Source: Dromiciops gliroides
Lineage: Eukaryota
Reading direction: 5' to 3'
Assembly: GCF_019393635.1 (NCBI RefSeq)
Contig: NC_057861.1
Span: 633,012,827 to 633,076,826 of the forward strand
Length of the DNA stretch: 64,000 bases
In this document: one piece after another, positions 49,016-63,713 of the stretch
Numbering within the stretch: position 1 is the first letter of the stretch
How the letters are laid out: the number at the start of each line of letters is the position of its first letter
The notes under the pieces: generated by a model
What the model was told of the DNA's origin: nothing
Databases searched by the model: none
What the model saw: only the letters and a program-made list of their open reading frames with translations
Made by a program: the position numbers and the translations under genes

Positions 49016-50646
49016 CATATTACTAATTCTTAAGGCAATGCAAAACAATCAGAGGACATGTGTATGCAGTGTTGTGGTTATCTGCATTTTCTCCCACCAA
49101 ACAGGAATTTGAGAACATTACCCAACTCTCTTTATCCCTGTCCTACCCTGCCATGGTATGCAGGCATTAATAGTAACATTCAGAAATTGGTCTGGGCACA
49201 AGTTCTATCCAGGTTTGCAGTTAGAGATACCAAGTCCAACAACTTTTTCCATGACTTACCTACACAGCAAAGCCTTCTACAACAATGTGACTTTGCAGAG
49301 GAAACATTTAACCCTAATGCATGAAGTACTGAAATAGGGGAAGAATTCAGAGAACATCAAGTTGGGGTGGGGGGGTACATATAAAGTAGAAAAGGGCATG
49401 TTTAATTTCCTCTGACAAAATGGAGAGAAAAAATAACCATAGCCCAGTTAACTTAATGTCTCTTCCTGGATAGTAAGACTATTCAGAGACACTCTAAATT
49501 CTAGTCTTGGCCTCATGAGGCTTATCAGCCCACCCTCGAAATGTAAGAGTAGTTAGTAAAGGTAAAGTTAATAAAGCTTTCTTAAAGTACTTTACATATT
49601 TTTTTATGTGATCCTTATTACAATCCAATGAAGTAGACAGGGCAGATGGTATTATTCCCATTTTATAAATGAGGAAACTGAGGCTCCTAGAAAGTGTAGT
49701 GACATATCAGAAGTCATGTAGTTAAGTGCTAGAGCTTTTGGTTGAAGTGCTGTTCTCACTTCTAGTAGCAAGCAGCACTGGACCTGACCCTAATTCCCTA
49801 AAATGCCTTGCTTTGAACTGCCCTGCAACCTTTGATTGCTGTTGTAAGCACCAGTTGACCCTTTAGCTAGCCTTTTTACCAAATACTTAAGGTCAGTGGA
49901 TTGTACTAGAGCACTGGGCTCAAATAGTCCTAAGGGCTTCCTATCTAAGACCAGCCCTGTTGTACTGAGGATGAAGGAGCTGTCAGTCAGTCCCCAGTGC
50001 TGAATGAGCATGAACTGGGTACAGAATCTCTGGCCTAGGCATTGTAAAACTAGACAAAAAGTAATAAGTAGTCCCTGCCCATGAGGAATTAAGGACATGT
50101 GACAAAGCAAAAACTTGCTATCCCAGTAGTAATGTAAGATGCTATTTTTCCTTGTTTTCCCAAGCGAGTTCTTTCTAAAACCCCACATTGCTTTCCCACT
50201 TAAAAAACAAAACAAAACCTCAATGTAACCCCTATTGTCAACAACTTAAGGTCCAAATGACTTAGCTGGAATTTCTGCTCAGGGTGGCTTACTTGATGCA
50301 TTGCTTCACAGGGCCTTTGTACTGCTCTTTCCAAGCATCAAGTCCTACAATCACAAAACTGTCCCTAACCATCCCAGCTTTTTATAATCCTACCCATGCC
50401 TTAATTCCTATAGTGTTTGTGCCATTCATTGTGGCACAACATGTTTTGTCTGGGGCTTGAGGTTACCTTTTTGTGGCAGTCAGGATTCAAACTACAGTCT
50501 TCAGAGTCCCAATCTAGTACCTTTGACACTAGAAGTTGTTGTACCTACTGAATTGTGGGAAGATGGGGAAGTGAGCTATGGGAGGTAGTTAGTTGTTACA
50601 TGATGAAGGAGAAGGAAGGTAGAAGTGAATTTATTTATCTTCTTAG

Positions 50647-50815
50647 CCCCCTGAAACAACTAAACACTCTAGAACCAGCTGTGCAAGAGCGCCTGCTAAA
50701 CCTGGATCGAATTCTAGACGCCCGAGGGAGCCAAGGAACTTCAATCTTGAGTACACCAAGAAGAGAGCGGACAGCTTTAGAAAAGGCTTTGAAAGAAAAG
50801 GACTCAGAGATTCAG
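50647..50815 (+). CDS. KIF22: KIF22 coding exon 9 (SPLKQLNTLEPAVQERLLNLDRILDARGSQGTSILSTPRRERTALEKALKEKDSEIQ)
   Basis: ORF 50555..50848; matches the remembered human [42 protein letters not shown]...EKDLEIE. Confidence 0.88.
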
Positions 50816-51074
50816 GTACAGACTGGAGACAATTCAAAGCTGGGTTGATGTTTTCCTCACCTCTGTCATGTGTTTCCTTCCTACCTTCTTGCTAGCTCCC
50901 TCATTCTAGACTTCATTTAACTCAGACTCCATTTCCCCACCCTCCAACCAGGATCTTTTGGTCTTATCTCTTCTTGAGACATCCTATTCTAGACCCTTGG
51001 GAAACAAATCTAGGTTAGGCCCTCAGGTGTTTGATACTGACTAGATCACCCTTTTCTTTCACTTATTCCCACAG

Positions 51075-51234
51075 AGGCTGAAGGAAAAGTATAAAGAGCT
51101 GGAGGCCAACAGACTGAGTCAGAGGCACAAGGAATTGGAGGAAGAGAATGGCTCCCTGGCCCCACCCTGTCCCTTTCCCTCCCAAACAGTACCCAACATC
51201 AAACCCCTGAATAGGGTTGTACCCTTTCAGCTAA
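51075..51234 (+). CDS. KIF22: KIF22 coding exon 10 (coiled-coil: RLKEKYKELEANRLSQRHKELEEENGSLAPPCPFPSQTVPNIKPLNRVVPFQL-)
   Basis: Acceptor cccacag|; donor CTAA|GTAAGG; the junction with the next exon gives PFQLIQEQ, matching human PLQLIQEQ. Confidence 0.8.
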
Positions 51235-51355
51235 GTAAGGAAAGGGGAAAGGGGAAAGGGGTGGGGGACTGGAAGTTCTAGATGGGGCAAAGGAAACTAA
51301 AGGGGAGATTGGTGACTGCTTTGACACCATTATTGTCTCCAATCCCCACCTTTAG

Positions 51356-51420
51356 TTCAGGAGCAGACAACATCCCAAAGCAAGACCCAGGTCCTGCAGA
51401 AAGAAAACCGGAAGAGAAAG
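51356..51420 (+). CDS. KIF22: KIF22 coding exon 11 (IQEQTTSQSKTQVLQKENRKRK; basic NLS-like tail)
   Basis: Acceptor ccacctttag|; donor AAG|GTAAGA; aligns to the remembered human [23 protein letters not shown]. Confidence 0.8.
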
Positions 51421-52005
51421 GTAAGACAACCTGAAGGCTTGGATGCTTGGGCCTGTAAGGTGGAGGTTGTGGGGAGGGGGAAAATGAGAAGCCAAAACAC
51501 CTTATTTAGCAAACCATTATCATTCAACATTTATGGAGCTTCTGAGGATATGAGTTAGTCCCCAACTCTAGGAATTTATAGCTAGTTAGTGGGGGGTGAA
51601 AAATATAAACACATGAAAAATTAAACACTAGATGAGGCCTCAGATAAAAGAGATGTCAGGAGGTGGCACGGAAATAATTGCCAAATGGGAGGTCCTCTCA
51701 AGTGCCATGGGAGCTCGGAGAAGGGGGAAAGCTGAGTGGGCTAGAACAGCCAGCTCAGAAAGGTTTCATGGAGGGTGGTACTTGAAGGATGGGTTGATTG
51801 AGGATAGGTCTGAGTCTGGGGTGGGAATGGATAGGGTGTGTTCTGGCAGTAATCAGCCGGGTGCCAGAGAATAGCGGGATAGAGATGAGGGGAAGGGAAG
51901 ACTGGAGCTGGCCAGCCCCTCCACGTGGTGCTGGCTGCCTACCTGCAGCCCGCAGGGAGCCCCTGGAGATCCCCCTCATAGCCTTCTCTCTCCGTCCGGC
52001 TACAG

Positions 52006-52227
52006 CCCGAGCCGCTCCGCGGGCAGCAGGAGGAGCAGGCTGAGGGGCTCCGCACCACCCTGGCGCTGCTGCAGGTGCCCCCAGACCTCCTGGCCGAGAG
52101 CCGCAGGAAGATCCTGGGCTTGCTGAACACGGGCTCGGCCAAGGAGCTTCGCAGGCTGCAGCGCATTGGGGAGAAGAAAGCCCAGCTCATCGTGGGCTGG
52201 CGGGAGCTGCACGGCCCCTTTGCGGAG
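52006..52227 (+). CDS. KIF22: KIF22 coding exon 12 (helix-hairpin-helix DNA-binding region: ...[47 protein letters not shown])
   Basis: ORF 52075..52308; near-identical to the remembered human [47 protein letters not shown]. Confidence 0.9.
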
Positions 52228-52328
52228 GTGAGGCGGGGGCTGGCCCGGGAGGAGGAGGAGGAGGAGGAGGAGGGCGGCGGGTGGCGAGCCTTCCCCAAGG
52301 CAGCGTGATGCGCCTTTCTCCCCCGCAG

Positions 52329-52388
52329 GTGGAGGACCTGGGGCTGGTGGAGGGCATCTCCGACAAGCAGGTGGCCACCTTCCTGAAG
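52329..52388 (+). CDS. KIF22: KIF22 coding exon 13 (VEDLGLVEGISDKQVATFLK)
   Basis: Matches the remembered human [20 protein letters not shown]; acceptor ccccgcag|, donor AAG|GTACGG. Confidence 0.88.
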
Positions 52389-52468
52389 GTACGGAGGTGG
52401 GGGAGGGGGCCGGGGCGGGCAGGGCCGGGCCGATCGCGGCTCTAATTCCCTTCCCTCTCCTTTTCCAG

Positions 52469-53515: not shown

Positions 53516-53551
53516 ATGGATCCAGGCAACTGGAGCAGCTTCATCTTCCAG
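53516..53551 (+). CDS. MAZ: Candidate alternative MAZ 5' coding mini-exon (MDPGNWSSFIFQ) with donor CAG|GTAACA; phase 0, compatible with the MAZ exon 2 acceptor
   Basis: ATG in strong Kozak context (cgccATGG), 12 codons, then a perfect GTAACA donor; the 54808 acceptor is phase 0. Confidence 0.45.
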
Positions 53552-54484
53552 GTAACAACCCCCCCCTCCCCCCACCCCCCCCACGCCTTCTCCTCCCCCC
53601 CCACCCCATCTCCCTCCCTACACCCCCCTCCCTCCCTTCCGTTCCACCCCCCCCTCCGCGCGCCCGGTGCGCGCGCAGCTGCCCCCCTCCTTCCCTCCCT
53701 CCCTCCCCGAGGCGCAGAGAGGGAGCGCGCGCGGCGGGGGCAGAGGCTTCTCCCTCGCGCTCCCCCCTCCCCCCACCCACCCCGGGGATTCCAACCGCCG
53801 CAGCGTACCGGGCGCCCAGCCCGCCGCCTCGCGCCGCTTCCCGCGTCGTCTCGCCCTCCATTCCCGCTCCCTTCCCGGGTCCTGCCCCTCGGCCCCGCCC
53901 CCCCCTCGGCTCCTGCACCAGCTCTTGCTCCCCACCTGAGGGGACTTTTTCCCCCTCCCGCCTAGGGGGCGTTGCCTCTCTCCGCCTCAGCCTTCCGAGC
54001 GGGTGGGGTGGCAGTTGGTCCTCTCGCCTTCTGGGAGGGGATGTGGATGTGACTGGCCCCCAGCCCCCACTGCCCGGCGCGCTCCCTCAACAATGAGGGG
54101 AGGCGGCCTCCCCAGGTCAAAAACGATTGTTCTCTTGCAGTGAGGAGAGTGGTGTGCCATTGAGGGGGGTCGGGGGGCTGACCCCACAACCCCGGGCTTC
54201 CTGCCACCACCACCCGGCTTCGGCTGGCTTGGCTCTCCCTTCTTCCGGAGCACATTGCCCTTTTGGCCACTTTGGAGGCAATTTGCGGGGCCGTCTCCCC
54301 CCGAGGGGACCTGACCTTTCCCCCCAATTAAGGGGACGGGCACTTTCATGAGGATTACGCTCTTTTTTCCAGTTTTATTGTTTATATGACACTTTTAATC
54401 CAGGGAGCTCAAGAAGCTGTTTTAAGGGGTCGTTACCCCAAGTACTCCTGCCCTCTCTTCCTAACACCTTACTGGCTGGAGGCC

Positions 54485-54676
54485 ATGTTTCCTGTTTTCC
54501 CCTGCACCCTCCTGGCCCCCCCATTCCCTGTATTGGGATTGGATTCCAGGGGGGTTGGCAATCTAATGAACTCTTTTCCCCCACCTCAGGGTCACGCCCA
54601 GAATCCCCTGCAGGTTGGGGCTGAGCTTCAGTCCCGGTTCTTTGCATCCCAGGGCTGCAACCAGAGTCCATTCCAG
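54485..54676 (+). CDS. MAZ: MAZ (MYC-associated zinc finger) coding exon 1 (MFPVFPCTLLAPPFPVLGLDSRGVGNLMNSFPPPQGHAQNPLQVGAELQSRFFASQGCNQSPFQ)
   Basis: In-frame within ORF 54386..54994; almost identical to the remembered human MAZ N-terminus; donor CAG|GTGAGT. Confidence 0.9.
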
Positions 54677-54807
54677 GTGAGTACTCTGAGTACCAGGTGG
54701 AGGTTGGGGGATGAGGGGGTACACAGGATATGGGGTTCTGGGAGATTATCGAGGAGTGGGACACCTTTGTCCCACACGGTCTTTCCGCTCCCTTCTTTCC
54801 CTCTCAG

Positions 54808-55649
54808 GCTGCCCCAGCCCCCCCACCGACTCCTCAGGCCCCATCTGCTGAGCCCCTCCAGGTTGACCTCCTCCCTGTCCTCGCTGCAGCCCAGGAATCT
54901 GCTGCTGTGGCAGCAGCGGCCGCAGCAGCGGCCGCAGCTGCAGCTGCCCCCCCAGCCACTGCCACAGCTTCCACAGTGGACACAGCAGCCCTGAAGCAAC
55001 CCCCTGCACCGCCTCCACCACCCCCTCCGACCTCTGCACCAGCTCCTGAAGCTGCACCTCCAGCTACAATTGCTGCTGCTACTGCCACAGCTGCTGCTGC
55101 CCCAACCTCCACAGCTGTTGTAGCTCCTGTAGCTACTGCTCTGGAGAAGAAATCAAAGAGCAAAGGGCCATATATCTGTGCCCTCTGTGCCAAGGAGTTT
55201 AAGAACGGCTATAATCTTCGACGGCATGAAGCCATCCATACGGGTGCCAAGGCTGGGCGGGCTGGCCCAGGTGCTATGAGGATGCCCACCATGGTGCCCC
55301 TGAGTCTCCTGAGTGTGCCAGCAACACTGGGCGGAGCTGGTGGGGGTGGGGGTGAAGGGGGTGCTGGGGGTGGAGGGGCTGGAGTTGGTGGAGGCGGCGT
55401 GGTAACCACCACAGCCTCTGGGAAGCGGATCCGGAAGAACCACGCATGTGAGATGTGCGGAAAGGCCTTCCGTGATGTCTACCACCTGAACCGGCACAAG
55501 CTGTCACACTCTGATGAGAAGCCGTACCAGTGCCCTGTCTGTCAGCAGCGCTTCAAGCGCAAGGACCGCATGAGCTACCATGTGCGCTCACATGACGGCG
55601 CTGTGCACAAGCCCTACAACTGCTCCCACTGTGGCAAGAGCTTTTCCCG
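54808..55649 (+). CDS. MAZ: MAZ coding exon 2 (poly-Ala/Pro-rich region plus C2H2 zinc fingers 1-4: YICALCAKEF..HACEMCGKAF..YQCPVCQQRF..YNCSHCGKSFSR-)
   Basis: ORF 54730..55782; C2H2 finger signatures and the human-like EKKSKSKGPYICALCAKEFKNGYNLRRHEAIHTG; donor CG|GTGTGC gives SFSR|PDHL continuity with exon 3. Confidence 0.88.
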
Positions 55650-55988
55650 GTGTGCACAGGGATGGGCCACCCACAAGGGGGGGAGGGAGAGATGCCCATC
55701 AGGCAAAGGCTGCTTCCAAGGATGGGGGAGGAGAGAAGGTAGTGTCAATATAATGAGGGCAAAAGGGAGAGGCCTCACCTAAAGGAGACCTCAAGAAAAG
55801 GGATGACCTCACAGAGGGAAGAGAAGTCTTGCATGAGGGGAGGGATTTCTGGGTAAATAACAGTTGCTGGACTTCAAAAAAGAATGCACTCTCTAATGGG
55901 AAGAAACACAGTACAGAGTAGGGGAGGTGGGGTCACCCCCACCTTTAAGGCCAAAGGCCTAACCCCTTCCCCTAACAAATTCCCCCAG

Positions 55989-56052
55989 GCCAGACCACCT
56001 CAACAGCCACGTCAGACAGGTGCACTCAACAGAACGGCCCTTCAAATGTGCG
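55989..56052 (+). CDS. MAZ: MAZ coding exon 3 (-PDHLNSHVRQVHSTERPFKCA)
   Basis: Acceptor tcccccag|; matches the remembered human PDHLNSHVRQVHSTERPFKC; donor GCG|GTATGG. Confidence 0.85.
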
Positions 56053-56335: not shown

Positions 56336-56507
56336 ACATGTGAAGCAGCATTTGCTACCAAGGACCGACTTCGAGCACATACAGTGAGGCATGAAGAAAA
56401 GGTGCCATGCCACGTATGTGGCAAGATGCTGAGCGCAGCCTACATCTCTGACCACATGAAGGTGCACAGCCAGGGGCCTCACCACGTCTGCGAACTCTGC
56501 AACAAAG
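56336..56507 (+). CDS. MAZ: MAZ coding exon 4 (TCEAAFATKDRLRAHTVRHEEKVPCHVCGKMLSAAYISDHMKVHSQGPHHVCELCNKG-)
   Basis: Acceptor atcccag|; near-identical to the remembered human zinc fingers 5-6; donor AAAG|GTAGGG (phase 1). Confidence 0.9.
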
Positions 56508-57590
56508 GTAGGGAGGGAAGACACTGGAAGGGACTAGGGGAGAAATAGCAAAGGGCTCACTACACTGTTGAATTCCATCACAAAGGTAGGACTGTAGCAG
56601 AGGGGAATGGTTTCCTGATGTATGGTTCAAAGGATCAGTTAGGTTCCCCTTGGATAAAAAGAGTGTAGCTACATCTGGGTAAACACAGAAGCTTAATAAG
56701 ACCTAAAGTTAGCAGAACCATATTTATAAGGGAGAAAGCAGTTTACTTCTGAGAAGTGAAGCTCCCATCTTCTAAGTCTTAGTGCAGAAAAGGTGGCTGA
56801 GACTCAGTTACCTCTGGGAAAGAAGTAGCCAAGTAGCAAAAACTTCATGGGAAATTGAGAACTGGTTTCCCTCATTGTTGAGAAACAGAGGACACAACTT
56901 CTTCTGCAAGAGGGATACAATCCACTGAGAACAAGTTGACTGGATATAATGGGCCCATCAGAGTTTGGGGAAGAATATGCAACAACTAGTACTTGTGGAA
57001 GGACACACCAGGCAGAGAATACTAAACCCTTTGGGTGACAGTAACTCTTAACTGGAATGGGGGGTTGGGGAGTAACAGATGCAAAACCTGCATCTGAGAG
57101 ATATTATGGGTAGCTCTGGGGAGGAATACTTGAATAGAACAAGCTTCCTTTAAATGAAGTTTCCTCAGGGAACCAAATCCTTAGGGTTTGGGGGGGTTGG
57201 GGGACACAGCCGTCTCTGGGGAAGGATACATTCACTTAGGATTCCTAATTACTCAGGGCATTTATTCTATCTATCTCCTGCCACCTCTGGAGAGGGTTTT
57301 GCCAGTTGGGAAGAATCAGCTCTATGGGTCCTGGAGAGAGAGGTCACAGCTATCTCTGGGAAGGAATATCTTGCCAAATAGACAAAGTTCTAAGTTTGGG
57401 GAATGAAAAGATAATACCACCTCTGGGCAGAAGACCACAACCTGAATAGAAAAATATTTCCCAGGTTGTTGGGTATAGCTGACCTAACTATTACTGGGGA
57501 AGTGAGTTCCCAAACTAGGAGAAAATCCCCGTCTCCGGGGTCTCCACTTAGCTGATCCCTGTCCCTGTCCCCATCCCGGTCACCCCGTAG

Positions 57591-57808
57591 GCTTCACTAC
57601 GGCGGCATACCTGCGCGTCCATGCGGTGAAGGACCACGGGCTCCAGGCCCCCCGGCCCGACCGGCTCCTGTGCAAGCTCTGCAGTGTGCACTGCAAGACC
57701 CCCACCCAGCTGGCTGGCCACATGCAGACCCACCTCGGGGGGGCCGCACCCCCTGTCCCTGGAGACGCCCCCCAGCCACAGCCACCACCGCCGCAGCCCA
57801 CCTGCTGA
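57591..57808 (+). CDS. MAZ: MAZ coding exon 5, canonical terminal (-FTTAAYLRVHAVKDHGLQAPRPDRLLCKLCSVHCKTPTQLAGHMQTHLGGAAPPVPGDAPQPQPPPPQPTC*)
   Basis: ORF 57626..57808; acceptor caccccgtag|; the remembered human ends ...GDAPQPQPTC*. Confidence 0.88.
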
Positions 57809-58231
57809 GGGAAACCCCTGCACCCACCAGGCAAGGCTCGGCGCACGGCTGGTGGGGCATGGGGGGTTGAGGGGTGGAAGGGGATCAGAGGACCCCATGG
57901 GTAGGATAGGGGTATTTAGGAAGGCCCGAGGGCAGGATAGGTTACTAGGGAATATAGGCTAGGGAGGATACTTGGGGTAGGGAGGGCCTTTGAGGAGAAC
58001 TTTTGAAGTGTCTCCAAGGGAAAGAAGACAGGCTGGAAAGAGAAAACCTGAACCTCTGGAGAGGAAGCAGGAAATGTGCAACGGCTGTGTCCCAGGGGAG
58101 GGAATGGTAGAAGAAACAGCTTCCCAGGCAGAGAGGGGAAGCAGCTACCAGGGAGAAAGATCTTGCCACAGGTTCCACAATAACTCTTTCTCTCTCTTTT
58201 CCCCTTCTCTTCCCCTCCCTATTCGATGCAG

Positions 58232-58392
58232 GTACAGGTGAGGTTTGTCCTATGGCAGCAGCAGCATCAGCAGCGGCGGCGGCGGCAGCAGCAGCAGCAG
58301 TTGCAGCAGCTACCCCCACAGCTGTGGGCTCCCTTTCTGGGGCAGAGGGTGTCCCTGTGAGCTCTCAGCCACTTCCCTCACAGCCCTGGTGA
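58232..58392 (+). CDS. MAZ: Candidate alternative MAZ 3' terminal exon (-TGEVCPMAAAASAAAAAAAAAAVAAATPTAVGSLSGAEGVPVSSQPLPSQPW*), joined from exon 4 and skipping exon 5
   Basis: Acceptor gatgcag| in phase 1, matching the exon 4 donor; poly-Ala tail and C-terminus resemble a human MAZ splice isoform as I recall it; the minus-strand ORF 57945..58319 is its mirror image. Confidence 0.5.
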
Positions 58393-59333
58393 GCCCTGAG
58401 GTGGGGGTTGGGGTATAGAGGAAAGGCCTCAGTCCCCTCTCTCCTCTCCCACCCCTTTCCCACCAACTCAGTTCCTTCCCCCCCACCAACCAAGGAGCCA
58501 CCAGAAGGAAGGAGTGAAGAAATGTTTTCTTAGGGGAATTCACTAGATTTTAAACATTTGTTTCTCTTCTCTCTCCCCTCTCCCCGTATGAACCCCATTG
58601 TTCCTCTGATGATTTGGGGGCCCCCTAGACTGATATCAGGGGTGGCAGAGGACATGCCAGCTGTTTCATTGCCCTCTCCATCACCCTTCCCATGCTCTCC
58701 CAGGGATTCAAGAACCTTTTTCCCTTAAAGGTCCTCTTCCTTCCCACCTTTCCAGTTCCCTATTTGCCTACTGTCTGCTGCCCATCCCTGGGGAGTTGGT
58801 GCTGTTTAAATGGGGGGGGAGGGGCAGGATAAGAGTGCAGAGGAAGAAAGAAGAAAAATCAAAGATTCTGTCCTGGATGTGGGGAGGAGAGATTTAGAAA
58901 GAGACTGAGGTGAGGGACAAACAATAAAGGACTTAGTGTCACAAGTGGAGGTTTGTTTGGGGTCCTTGGCCCTAATTTTATCCTTCTGGAATGTGTCATA
59001 AAGAAGACTGGGCGAGCGAGGGAATAAAACATTTTGGGGAGAAGGCAGAGTAAGAGGCAGGACCTTGGGAGAGGGGAGTAGGGTAAGTAAAGGACAGAAT
59101 GAGAGGATAGAGTTTTGGGGGGTGCCAGAAAATAAAGGTGCTTCCCAGGGGGGGAATGCAGCAGCAGTATTTCCCCCATCCCCTCTCATCTCAACTGTAG
59201 CTCTGTCTTTTTTTTTATCCCTTTTTTCCCCTCCTCTCCCCAACAGAAATTGTGGCCCTAGCCATGACATCGTGTTCCTGTGTCCCCTGCATGTTCCCCA
59301 CCCTTCACCCCTTCCCTTTGCGGACCCCATTAC

Positions 59334-59339
59334 AATAAA
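59334..59339 (+). terminator. MAZ: AATAAA poly(A) signal, likely end of the MAZ 3' UTR
   Basis: CATTACAATAAATTTTAAAC, ~1.5 kb after the canonical stop, before the PRRT2 CpG island. Confidence 0.5.
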
Positions 59340-59899
59340 TTTTAAACAAAAACAGATACCTGATTCTGGCTATTTGTCTCTTACCCCACTACCATCAATC
59401 ACACGGAGACACCTACAGCTGCCAACCTGGGGTCAACAGCAGCAGCCCCCACTGCCATCCTCCCACCCACCCAGACACCAGAGTCTGTTTCCTTCTTCCT
59501 TTGGGCCCTGATCCCAGACTCAGTTCTCTATTTAATCTCCCTCCTCGGCCGAGGACACCAGTGGTTGCAGCCCAGATGCAGGGTGGAGCAGGGAGGATCC
59601 AGTGTCTGTGGCTAGCAAGCTCCAGGACTCCTAGGTCTCTGGGGAAATCCCTGCCCTGGGGAAGCAAATCACTATTCGAGGCTGCTGCTAGACCTTCGCG
59701 GGCTATCTGCTCCCTTTAGGGCAGAGTCAGCTCCCCCCAGCATCCCTGCCAAAGGGCATAATCTTGGGACCCCACAGTCAAATACCTGCAAAGTCATGTC
59801 ATCGATGCAAGCTGGAACAGTGGCAAGGCTGGGGAAAGTCTGAGAGCCCCAGTACGGGGTGGGTGGGGCCAGCGAAGAGGGGAAGTTGCAGTTGGCCCC

Positions 59900-60700
59900 T
59901 ACCGACACCCAATTCCTGCCTTTACCTCCCTTGGAGCTCACCAGCCTTCCCTGAGGTGCTCCTTCACAGCCCCTTTACCTGCGTCCCACCTCCCAATCCC
60001 TTCCTTTCCACGTCCTTGTCACTCTCTCGGACCCTTTCCGGCTGCTCCTGGTCCACCTCTCAGCGAGGAAAGGGGGAACCCTTTCTTCTCGCGCTCCCCT
60101 GTGGGTCCTTTCCCTCTCCCACCGCCCATACCCTGACCCCGCAGCCTAGCCTGTCCCCCCGTCTCCGGACACAGCCCCGGTTCCCCTCCCCTTCCCCCCA
60201 TGCCAGCCTCTCCCGTCTGGTCTCACACCCCGCACCGCAGCCCTTCAAGCTGAGGGAGGGGGAGGGGAAGTTCGGTGACCGTTGGGCAGGAGGGGGGGCG
60301 CGAGGGCCTGGGGGGTTCGCTGGGTGAGGAGGGGTGGGGGCGCGAGGCAACCTGCTGGTTGCCAGGGTAACTCAGGGCCCCAGCGCGCGAGGCTCCCCCG
60401 AGTCCAGGATGGGAGGGGAGGCGATGGAGTGCAGGGGGGGCGGGGGCGGTGCGCGCAAGGCGGGGTGGAAGGAGGGAGGGGGGACCGCTGCCTTGCTCGC
60501 TCGCTCGCTGGCTCGCACGCTTGCTCCCGGGCTGCTGCAGCAGCGGCGGCGGCGGCAGGAACATCCCCCAGGGCTCTGGGAAAAGAAGAGAAGGTGAGCT
60601 GAGGGTGTTTCGGAAGGCCTGGGGGCCTGGGGGCCGGGGGAGGCTAGGAGGGGAAGAGATTCACTATATGAATGTAGGGTGCATGGACTCACGGAGCCCC
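59900..60700. promoter_or_regulatory. PRRT2: CpG island / likely PRRT2 promoter and non-coding first exon (candidate donor AGAAG|GTGAGC near 60594)
   Basis: GC- and CpG-rich block (gctcgctcgctcgctggctcgcacgc, (GCG)n) ~1.2 kb upstream of the PRRT2 ATG; GTGAGC donor after cagcagcggcggcggcggcagg. Confidence 0.45.
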
Positions 60701-61815
60701 GGCACAAGAATGCGGGGTCTCTGCGGGTGGGAGGGAGGTACCGAGGCTCTGGATGGGGCTTGAGAAGCTGGGGGGGGGGGGAGGATACTTGCGAAACCAA
60801 GATGTTAAAGGGAATGTAAAGGCACGGAGATCTGAGGGGGAAAGGCAGCAGGGAGGGTGACGCTCCCCTGGGAGAAGGGATTGGAGACAGATAAGGAAGG
60901 GATTCCCCCTTCTCTAGGGGAGGGGGCTCCATATGCACGCAGTAAGAAAACCACCAGTCTGAGCTGGGGGGGGGGGGGAGTGTGAGGAAGGGAGGAAGAA
61001 GGGATGGAGAGAGTTACCAAACGAGGGAGATTGGAGCCAGTTTGAGGGGAAATGGAGGAAGGAGGGGAGAGCGCAGGGTGACATAGAAAGGAAGAATGTC
61101 CATCTGCCTGGGAGTGGGCTCATCGGCGTGCCTGTGAGACTGTATTTGCTAGGCAAGGTGGTGAGTGACTGCCTGCCTGACTGCCTGCCTCCCTGCCTGC
61201 CTCCTTATGCCTCAGCGTCTGGATCTGTCTATGCGTGTCTGCATCTCTGTCCATGGCTGAGTTTCTCTGGATGATACAGGGAAGGGGGGACCCTCAAGAA
61301 AGTGAGGGTGGGTGGAGAGCTGAAGGAAGGCTAGCTTTCTGCTCCTGGTACCCAAAGGGTTAACCCAGGTCTCTCCAGAACTATAGACAGCTGAGTGAAA
61401 GAGAACCTCACTTTCTAAGGCACCCCATTGCCTTCCTCATTTCCAGCATCGCAGCACCACCTCCCCACCTTAAACCCCACCCCACCCCCACTTCACTGCT
61501 GTCCCACCTGGAGGGAAGGAAAGTCTCAGCTCTTTCTATTACTTACCCAATGCTGCTAACCTACCCTCTAGCCCAGAGGAGAAAGCGGGCATCTCTTGAG
61601 GTCCTTCCCTCTGAGTCTGTTAACACTTAGCCACTACCTTGGCCCTCTTCAGAGTCAGAGGTGCCTCTGTTCAGAGCCAGCTGAGGCTCCTGGGCTCCAT
61701 ATTCTATACTTTCCCTTCCCCAGACCCAGCTGTGTCTCCTCTTATTCCAGGATATCCTGTTGCTGCTCTCTCCCCTTCCCCCCACTATCCTATCCCTCCC
61801 CTATCCTATCTCAAG

Positions 61816-62895
61816 ATGGCATCCAGTGGCTCTGAAGGGACAGAGATGAAGGGGGATGAGGAGGGTACCTCAGCCCAGGGCGAAGGGACTGGAACAACTC
61901 CTGGAGCAGAGACTACCCTTCCCCAGACTCCAGCTGGGGCCCAGGACATCACAGAGGCCCCCCAAATGGGTTCAGATTCCACCAGACCCTCCGATAAAGG
62001 CCCAGAAGTGGGGACATCTGAACGGGCAATAAAAACTTCAGAGGCACTAGAAGGGACCCCAAACCCAGCCAAGGACACAGACTCCATACCAGACCCAGGA
62101 AGTTCACAGACAGAACAGACCCCTGCAGCAGACTCACATTCTCAGCTAACACCACAATACTACAAAGAATCTGTCCCAGCTCCAGGAGGGAGCAAAGAGT
62201 CTGCCCCAGAAGAGAGTAAAAAGCCAGCCCCAGAAGAGAGCAAAAAGCCAGCCCCAGAAGGGAGCAAAGAGCCAGCCCCAGAAGGGAGCAAAGAGCCAGC
62301 CCCAGAAGAGAGCAAAAAGCCAGCCCCAGAAGAGAGCAAAAAGCCAGCCCCAGAAGGAAGCAAAGCGCCTACCCCAGTCCTAGAAGTAAACAAAGAACCA
62401 TCTCCAACCACAGGCCCAGAGGCAGAACAGGGGACTAAGCAGGAAGCAGTGTCTGACCTCAGGCCTGTCCCCCAGCCTACATCTCCTGTCCAAAAGGCAA
62501 TGCCCATCTCCACAACCCCTGAGGACCTAACAGAGGACCTGATGGAGAAACAAGAGAATGGAGCTGTAGTGCCAATGAAGGCTGGAGAAGGGGACAAGAG
62601 CACAATCTCTCAGCCCCACTCTCCTCCTGCACCCAAGGGCCCTCCAGCCAATGGGGCACCCCCAAAGGTGCTACAGCAGTTGGTGGATGAGGAGAGAGGA
62701 ATTGGGGGGCATGGTACAAAGTCTGGCTCCCCCCGAGGCAGCCTGAGCCGCCAGCCCAGCTCCCTGCTGGGGGGGCCAGGAGGTGAGGGGGGTGAAGGGG
62801 TCCCAAAGCCACGGGACTACATCATCATCGCCATCCTTTCCTGCTTCTGCCCAATGTGGCCTGTCAACATTGTGGCTTTTGCTTATGCCATCATG
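61816..62895 (+). CDS. PRRT2: PRRT2 (proline-rich transmembrane protein 2) major coding exon ([17 protein letters not shown] ... [29 protein letters not shown])
   Basis: ORF 61639..62973; C-terminal part near-identical to the remembered human PRRT2 ([40 protein letters not shown]...[29 protein letters not shown]); donor ATG|GTGAGT. Confidence 0.9.
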
Positions 62896-63326
62896 GTGAG
62901 TTTTTGGGAATCCCTACCTTCCCTTTGCCCTAGCTCCCTTATACTACTGGTCAAGTGCTGTTCATGTGCCTGACTTGGAAACCCCAGGTATGAGGGGGAT
63001 GGGAATTGGGGAGGGGGGAGGGGGTTTGGGACACGTCCTCATGGACCCTGAGGACCACATCTCCAAAAAATCCTAGGGCTCTTCCTTTAGATTTCTGTCC
63101 ACTTATTCTCCTTTGATCTCATCTCTCCCTGGCCCTTGTATCCCAGAAACTTTCTCCAAGACCCTCTCCTTCCCAGGGAGGAGAAAAGGAAGAGTCTTTG
63201 ACCTTCTATTGACAATATGCCATCTTTTTATCCTCCTTCCCTCTCCTCTATATACATTCTGACTGAAACTCCGGCTGGATGATGATGGTCACCTGACCCA
63301 CACCCCCTTGTTGCTGACTACCCCAG

Positions 63327-63459
63327 TCTCGGAACAGTCTACAGCAGGGTGATGTGGATGGAGCTCAGCGCTTGGGACGGGTGGCCAAGCTGCTGAGTAT
63401 CGTGGCATTGGTTGGAGGGGTCCTCATCATCATTGCTTCCTGTATCATCAACTTTGGAT
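63327..63459 (+). CDS. PRRT2: PRRT2 coding exon ([44 protein letters not shown]; second TM helix)
   Basis: Acceptor ccccag|; essentially identical to the remembered human [44 protein letters not shown]; donor T|GTGAGT. Confidence 0.88.
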
Positions 63460-63713
63460 GTGAGTATGAGCATGGGTTGGTTGGGGAGTGGGGGTGGGGA
63501 TGGGGTAGGGGGTTGGGTGAATGGTGGGTGTTTATGGTAGAACCTGGAAGTTTCTAGTTAGATAACTGAATGGGTGGAGATGGGTTGTGTTTCTTTAAAG
63601 AGCTGTGGCTCTGTGGAAATAGAACTAGATTTTGAAGAAAAGTGGAACTGGTTGTTAGTGGAGGCCTAGCATCAACTAACCTCATGTACCTGCTCTCTCT
63701 GTCTGTTTCTCCC

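Follow-up and report, generated by a model that had tools for sequence, protein, structure and literature searches.

The exon that starts at position 58232 on the plus strand is very probably the single terminal exon of MAZ (Myc-associated zinc finger protein) in this marsupial, Dromiciops gliroides, with the coding sequence at its start (58232-58392, +). This coding part supplies the last 52 residues of a MAZ-1-type protein of 476 aa, together with the stop codon. The poly-alanine tail it encodes is the C-terminus of MAZ-1, a known and ordinary protein end that is already annotated in wallaby and in many vertebrates. Conservation, together with gene models and contigs of other species, suggests that the junction from 56507 to 58232 is used in this marsupial.

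We rebuilt the gene in the window (the whole 64,000-nt stretch of DNA that was analysed) from splice sites and reading frame. Exons 1-4 lie at 54485-54676, 54808-55649, 55989-56052 and 56336-56507, and with the terminal exon they enclose four introns with GT-AG boundaries. Exons 1-3 (54485-56052, +) supply the reading frame that continues into the 58232 exon, and exon 4 (56336-56507, +) encodes zinc fingers 5 and 6 and the CxxC half of a further finger. Exon 4 aligns both to positions 698-874 of a primate cDNA-type contig (L001) and to the MAZ locus of the cat (L002). Because exons 1-4 sum to 1270 nt (3x423+1), the intron after 56507 is of phase 1 (donor ACAAAG/gtaggg; the slash marks a splice boundary), and exon 4 ends one base into a glycine codon. 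Exon 2 is rich in proline and alanine. By Pfam zf-C2H2 matches, translation and AlphaFold2, the protein has six C2H2 zinc fingers, a proline-rich region and alanine tracts, the features with which MAZ has been described (PMC5356707).

A protein search with the spliced 476-aa protein gave tammar wallaby MAZ isoform X3, 98% identical along the entire length (E=2e-298, 100% coverage). The other top matches were all vertebrate MAZ proteins, with VEZF1 scoring lower, so that the assignment of the gene to MAZ in the preliminary description is borne out. None of the entries returned for the full-length protein was named human reference MAZ, and a protein search with the last 89 residues gave 13 short fragments only, none of them named human. 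The four isoform sequences derived from the window had no exact match in the protein collection searched. A PDB sequence search with the window MAZ retrieved generic C2H2 proteins only, with no MAZ structure and no match to the tail.

The surroundings of the gene were compared with the cat genomic locus, which was fetched via a cat MAZ gene model. The window is collinear with it between 50.6 and 63.5 kb, where a kinesin gene, MAZ and a CD225-family gene keep their order and orientation; the two neighbours of MAZ in the window carry Pfam Kinesin (upstream) and CD225 (downstream) domains. This order fits the human one at 16p11.2. The conserved flanking blocks lie at 50634-52390 and 60332-63465 (+), the former covering 3' exons of a KIF22-type kinesin gene and the latter belonging to a PRRT2-type CD225-family gene. 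The locus is thus an intron-containing, orthologous MAZ gene of a marsupial. An origin as a retrocopy or paralogue was considered separately and is ruled out by the introns and the synteny.

Several observations concern the N-terminal half of the gene. An in-frame upstream ATG (MTLLIQGAQEAVLRG...) lies at 54386-54484 (+), 33 codons ahead of the conserved MFPVFPC start; the NCBI wallaby models X1-X3 begin at this upstream ATG, and the eutherian MAZ entries retrieved begin at MFPVFPC. There is also a short alternative first coding exon at 53516-53551 (+), reading MDPGNWSSFIFQ/gtaaca. Wallaby MAZ isoform X4 has a matching N-terminus, and so do many MAZ entries from reptiles and amphibians (a MAZ-3/SAF-3-type start). 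The short exon would splice to the acceptor cctcag/GGTCACGCC inside exon 1, between 54589 and 54590. Zinc finger 5 (56045-56052 and 56336-56341, +) reads PFKCATCEAAF here and in wallaby, which differs by two substitutions from the PFKCEKCEAAF of eutherian MAZ-1, and reptiles have PFKCETCEAAF; the variable residues sit between the two zinc-binding cysteines of the finger.

At the terminal exon, positions 58215-58245 read ctccctattcgatgcag/GTACAGGTGAGG, a strong AG acceptor of phase 1 at 58232 that is preceded by a polypyrimidine tract of about 45 nt. Joining 56507 to 58232 produces the 476-aa protein ending CELCNKGTGEVCPMAAAASAAAAAAAAAAVAAATPTAVGSLSGAEGVPVSSQPLPSQPW, with 53 codons up to the TGA at 58390-58392. 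The phase match to the exon 4 donor, the translation and the stop agree letter for letter with what had been described before. The tail begins with GTGEVCPM, followed by the poly-alanine tract and by a conserved 23-residue peptide ending in QPW. The tract is encoded by an imperfect GCN trinucleotide repeat at 58255-58310 (+), for which TRF gives period 3, 18.7 copies and 84% matches, and it holds 17 alanines in 19 residues. The peptide, AVGSLSGAEGVPVSSQPLPSQPW, is encoded by 58321-58389 (+) and contains a casein-kinase-2-type site, SGAE. The 53-aa tail gave no Pfam match, hence no zinc finger is encoded by the 58232 exon.

The remainder of this exon is the 3' UTR (58393-59355, +), with an AATAAA at 59334-59339 and a 3' end probably near 59355. 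Blocks conserved with L001 (to 58803) and with the cat (57506-58807 and 59117-59353) cover parts of the UTR, and the signal at 59334, which lies within a cat-conserved block, is the sole conserved poly(A) signal. We note that the context of the stop, CCCTG/GTGAGC (58384-58395, +), conforms to the 5' splice-site consensus. The tail of wallaby isoform X3 stops at ...SQP and lacks the final W, which matches the product expected of a 3'-UTR intron starting from 58389, with the stop rebuilt as TG/A.

A second exon is available to the same donor. The acceptor at 57591 (ccccgtag/GCTTCAC), which is identical in the cat, is also in phase with exon 4 and opens a 240-nt alternative cassette exon of MAZ-2/SAF-2 type (57591-57830, +). 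It encodes GFTTAAYLRVHAVKDH...LLCKLCSVHCKTPTQLAGHMQTH...PTC and reaches a TGA at 57806-57808, giving a protein of 495 aa; the two window isoforms have 424 residues in common and then tails of 52 and 71. The cassette-containing C-terminus has two Pfam zinc-finger matches (residues 31-54 and 66-85). The first of these fingers completes the CxxC half finger left by exon 4 and the second is added to it. The cassette stop lies 22 nt before a GC donor, CAG/gcaagg (57829-57836, +), that is base-for-base identical in the cat.

Since both the 57591 and the 58232 exon follow exon 4 in phase with open frames, the sequence from 57591 onward could be read as the canonical terminal exon 5, and the 58232 exon as an alternative 3' terminal exon of a minor 'isoform 2', as in the preliminary description. 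Which exon is called canonical depends in part on convention, for MAZ-2 mRNA slightly exceeded MAZ-1 mRNA in one data set from gastric cancer (PMC12102611). However, the 57591 exon ends in the cat-identical donor, and the sequence from there to 58232 contains neither AATAAA nor ATTAAA. Moreover, the cat gene model splices its 57591-type exon to the 58232 acceptor, as seen in the frameshifted tail ...APTR/YR of P0045, which corresponds to ...CCACCAG/GTACAGG. The conserved donor, the lack of a poly(A) signal and the splice in the cat together make the 58232 exon the single terminal exon, with its poly(A) signal at 59334, rather than an alternative one. In the literature, too, the 57591-type exon is an internal exon that is retained or skipped, and the protein with the alanine tail is MAZ-1 (PMC12102611, PMC5622404). 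The supposed canonical exon 5 is therefore the alternatively included MAZ-2/SAF-2 exon, and we regard the reading with two competing terminal exons as very unlikely. The non-consensus GC donor fits the cassette being the regulated exon.

The cassette exon is flanked by conserved intronic sequence. A block in intron 5, GCAACGGCTGTGTCCCAGGGGAGGGA (58078-58103, +), is identical at 26/26 positions between marsupial and cat and lies ~130 nt upstream of the terminal acceptor. Another block, upstream of the cassette exon (57515-57555, +; CTAGGAGAA..CCCCGTCTC.GGGGTCTCCAC), is strongly conserved between the same two species. The introns around both blocks are otherwise hardly alignable to the cat, and on this comparison the blocks are candidate splicing-regulatory elements. 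When the region of the second block was folded as RNA, no significant structure resulted (z = -0.84).

The two protein ends would follow from a simple splice choice. If the cassette is skipped, exon 4 would join 58232 and give the six-finger, MAZ-1-type protein (476 aa in the marsupial, 477 aa in human). If it is included, the half finger would be completed and one more finger gained; the MAZ-2/SAF-2-type product would have 495 aa in the marsupial, against 493 aa in human, and the 58232 exon would then be pure 3' UTR. A stop codon nearer to the last exon junction than 50-55 nt does not make an mRNA a target of nonsense-mediated decay. As the cassette stop is only 22 nt before the last junction, the cassette-included mRNA should escape decay by this rule.

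This scheme is the one known from human, where MAZ-1 and MAZ-2 have 427 residues in common and only their C-terminal tails differ (PMC5622404). There, MAZ-2 results when a 225-nt exon is retained, which introduces a premature stop and adds two zinc fingers; MAZ-1 has been the subject of most functional work, and PUF60 influences the isoform switch (PMC12102611). The tail isoform therefore lacks two fingers relative to MAZ-2, and not one as had been proposed. MAZ-2/SAF-2 comes from the same locus via 57591-57830, as the other isoform, with the stop inside the exon and two extra fingers. The marsupial exon is 15 nt longer than the human one through a five-codon PPPPQ insertion, which also appears as a 15-nt gap in the alignment to the cat.

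Human and mouse MAZ-1 (SAF-1, Pur-1, ZF87) use the same junction of exon 4 to the terminal exon as the window, and their tails follow the same plan of GTGEVCPM, poly-alanine and AVGSLSGAEGVPVSSQPLPSQPW. The window protein differs from MAZ-1 in being one residue shorter and in the length and interruptions of the alanine tract (AAAASA10VAAATPT here). The 477-aa human form is presumably the UniProt canonical P56270-1. The marsupial tail is equated with that of human MAZ-1 on the basis of published descriptions, of primate and other eutherian sequences and of this entry. The earlier suggestion that the tail resembles that of a human splice isoform was thus right as to the match, which is to a primate-type MAZ C-terminus, but the form in question is MAZ-1 and not 'isoform 2'.

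Support for use of the frame comes from L001, a contig of 1510 nt that was assembled from a public sequencing run. It is free of introns, and its alignment to the window falls into four successive blocks (exon 2, exon 3, exon 4 and 58230-58803), with exon 4 joined to the 58232 exon exactly at AACAAAG/GTAC. The product of L001 is identical to macaque MAZ at 287/288 residues up to CELCNKG and departs from the macaque MAZ-2 form exactly at the junction; by these alignments it is a primate MAZ-1 mRNA-type sequence. Within the GCN tract L001 has a frameshift, for which an assembly error is the simplest explanation.

Between the window and L001 there are seven base differences in the last 23 codons plus the stop. 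Every one of them is synonymous in the claimed frame, and every one would be non-synonymous if either of the other two frames were read. The first nine codons of the exon (GTGEVCPMA) are likewise kept through synonymous changes. Comparison with the cat gives a similar picture by region: identity is 91% over the first part of the coding sequence (58232-58254), 73% over the GCN tract and 90% over the last part (58311-58392), and falls to 28% over the 100 intronic nt immediately ahead of the exon.

These comparisons bear on a further reading, in which the cassette is constitutive in this marsupial, 58232-58392 is only 3' UTR and its frame is a relic held open by the GCN repeat. GCN repeats do open frames on both strands. 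However, an identical 23-residue peptide with its stop, and seven synonymous against zero non-synonymous differences across the split between marsupials and eutherians, argue for selection on the protein frame. Conservation of the 5' part (GTGEVCPM) through synonymous changes also speaks against a relic, as do the NCBI wallaby models, which include the tail isoform. We consider it highly improbable that the frame is a relic, and take 58232-58392 as coding sequence of the terminal exon.

Some of the retrieved sequences with this tail were irregular. The 136-aa predicted protein P0122 (a Logan contig in the cluster of P0001) jumps straight from the alanine tract of exon 2 to the C-terminal alanine tract and tail, and is almost certainly an assembly collapse through two GCN repeats. 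Five eutherian 'MAZ-like' or low-quality entries (P0003, P0004, P0006, P0139 and P0141) have the exon-4-to-tail junction together with many scattered substitutions or internal deletions, and look like retrocopies of MAZ-1 mRNA.

There is also a long frame on the other strand. An ORF of 124 aa runs at 57945-58319 (-), antisense to the GCN tract and to the purine-poor intron 5. Such a frame does exist and could in principle be the real gene, with the plus-strand frame incidental to it. It has no Pfam family match, and only its first ~22 codons overlap the 58232 exon. The remaining codons, about 100, lie antisense to intron 5, which is poorly conserved (49% identical to the cat, with 90 gapped alignment columns), and all substitutions in the overlap of ORF and exon fit the plus-strand frame. 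We therefore give a minus-strand gene practically no credence; the ORF is spurious, as the preliminary description had already supposed.

The tail was then followed across the retrieved MAZ proteins. In wallaby isoform X2 (XP_072455263.1) the tail differs by a single additional alanine, and wallaby isoforms X1 and X4 carry the tail of the cassette exon. The wallaby model and entries from whale, hamster and capuchin have the 23-residue peptide unchanged; a vole fragment differs only at the last residue (W to G). Together with the synonymous differences from L001, this comparison across mammals upholds the view that the C-terminal peptide is conserved.

Beyond mammals, the ...QPW end persists as far as sharks, and isoform pairs with the two tails are found among mammals, reptiles, birds, amphibians and sharks. 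The aligned tails have in common the elements CxxCNKG-TGE-x-CP, a short alanine-rich stretch and ...EG-P...Q-LP-QPW. Among the retrieved MAZ proteins a long alanine run is confined to mammals, and its length varies between species: there are 17 alanines in the window tail, one more in wallaby, about 4-7 in reptiles and none in frogs. Judged from these alignments, the tract is a lineage-specific (mammalian) GCN expansion between two old and constrained peptide elements.

A similar pair of tails is found in a different gene. The skate VEZF1-like paralogues P0062 and P0071, known from predicted proteins only, have the same tail pair, reading ...CNKDTAEVC...SPPW versus ...CNKGFTTAAYLRVH..., without a poly-alanine tract. 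On the evidence of these predicted proteins, the splice switch may predate the duplication that gave rise to MAZ and VEZF1.

A structural model of the protein was built with AlphaFold2 on 24 tail-bearing homologues. The six fingers form six beta-beta-alpha units, and their block means of pLDDT range from 73 to 93. For the half finger and GTGEVCP the model gives pLDDT of 56-67 and shows no secondary structure; the alanine tract (residues 430-449) is a low-confidence helix (pLDDT about 56) and the conserved peptide (449-474) is unstructured, with pLDDT <50. An end that is disordered and yet strongly conserved fits a short linear motif. From the model we infer that the tail is probably a disordered regulatory region with such a motif, including a reported CK2 site. 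Human S460 is phosphorylated by casein kinase II (PMC5622404). The serine of SGAE, residue 459 here, would correspond to it by position and agrees with S-x-x-E, the consensus for casein kinase 2.

The half finger invites one other interpretation. In MAZ-2 the cassette exon completes the CxxC half finger of exon 4 canonically with HxxxxxH, and in MAZ-1 the half finger is followed by GTGE-x-CP, whose cysteine and proline hardly vary from sharks to mammals. The half finger with GTGE-x-CP might form a non-canonical zinc knuckle (His/Cys-Cys-Cys), or some other structured element for docking, that splicing can switch. In the AlphaFold2 model neither the half finger nor the tail peptide is ordered, which gives no positive support for a zinc knuckle, and we think one very unlikely. 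Were it true, the alternative splice would swap the chemistry of one metal site besides adding fingers.

In terms of exon naming, it is 57591-57830 and not the 58232 exon that is regulated. With this corrected, marsupial MAZ keeps a vertebrate-wide switch between a six-finger protein with an alanine-containing tail and an eight-finger protein. The tail peptide and the splice switch date back at least to cartilaginous fishes, and both are already visible in existing annotations.
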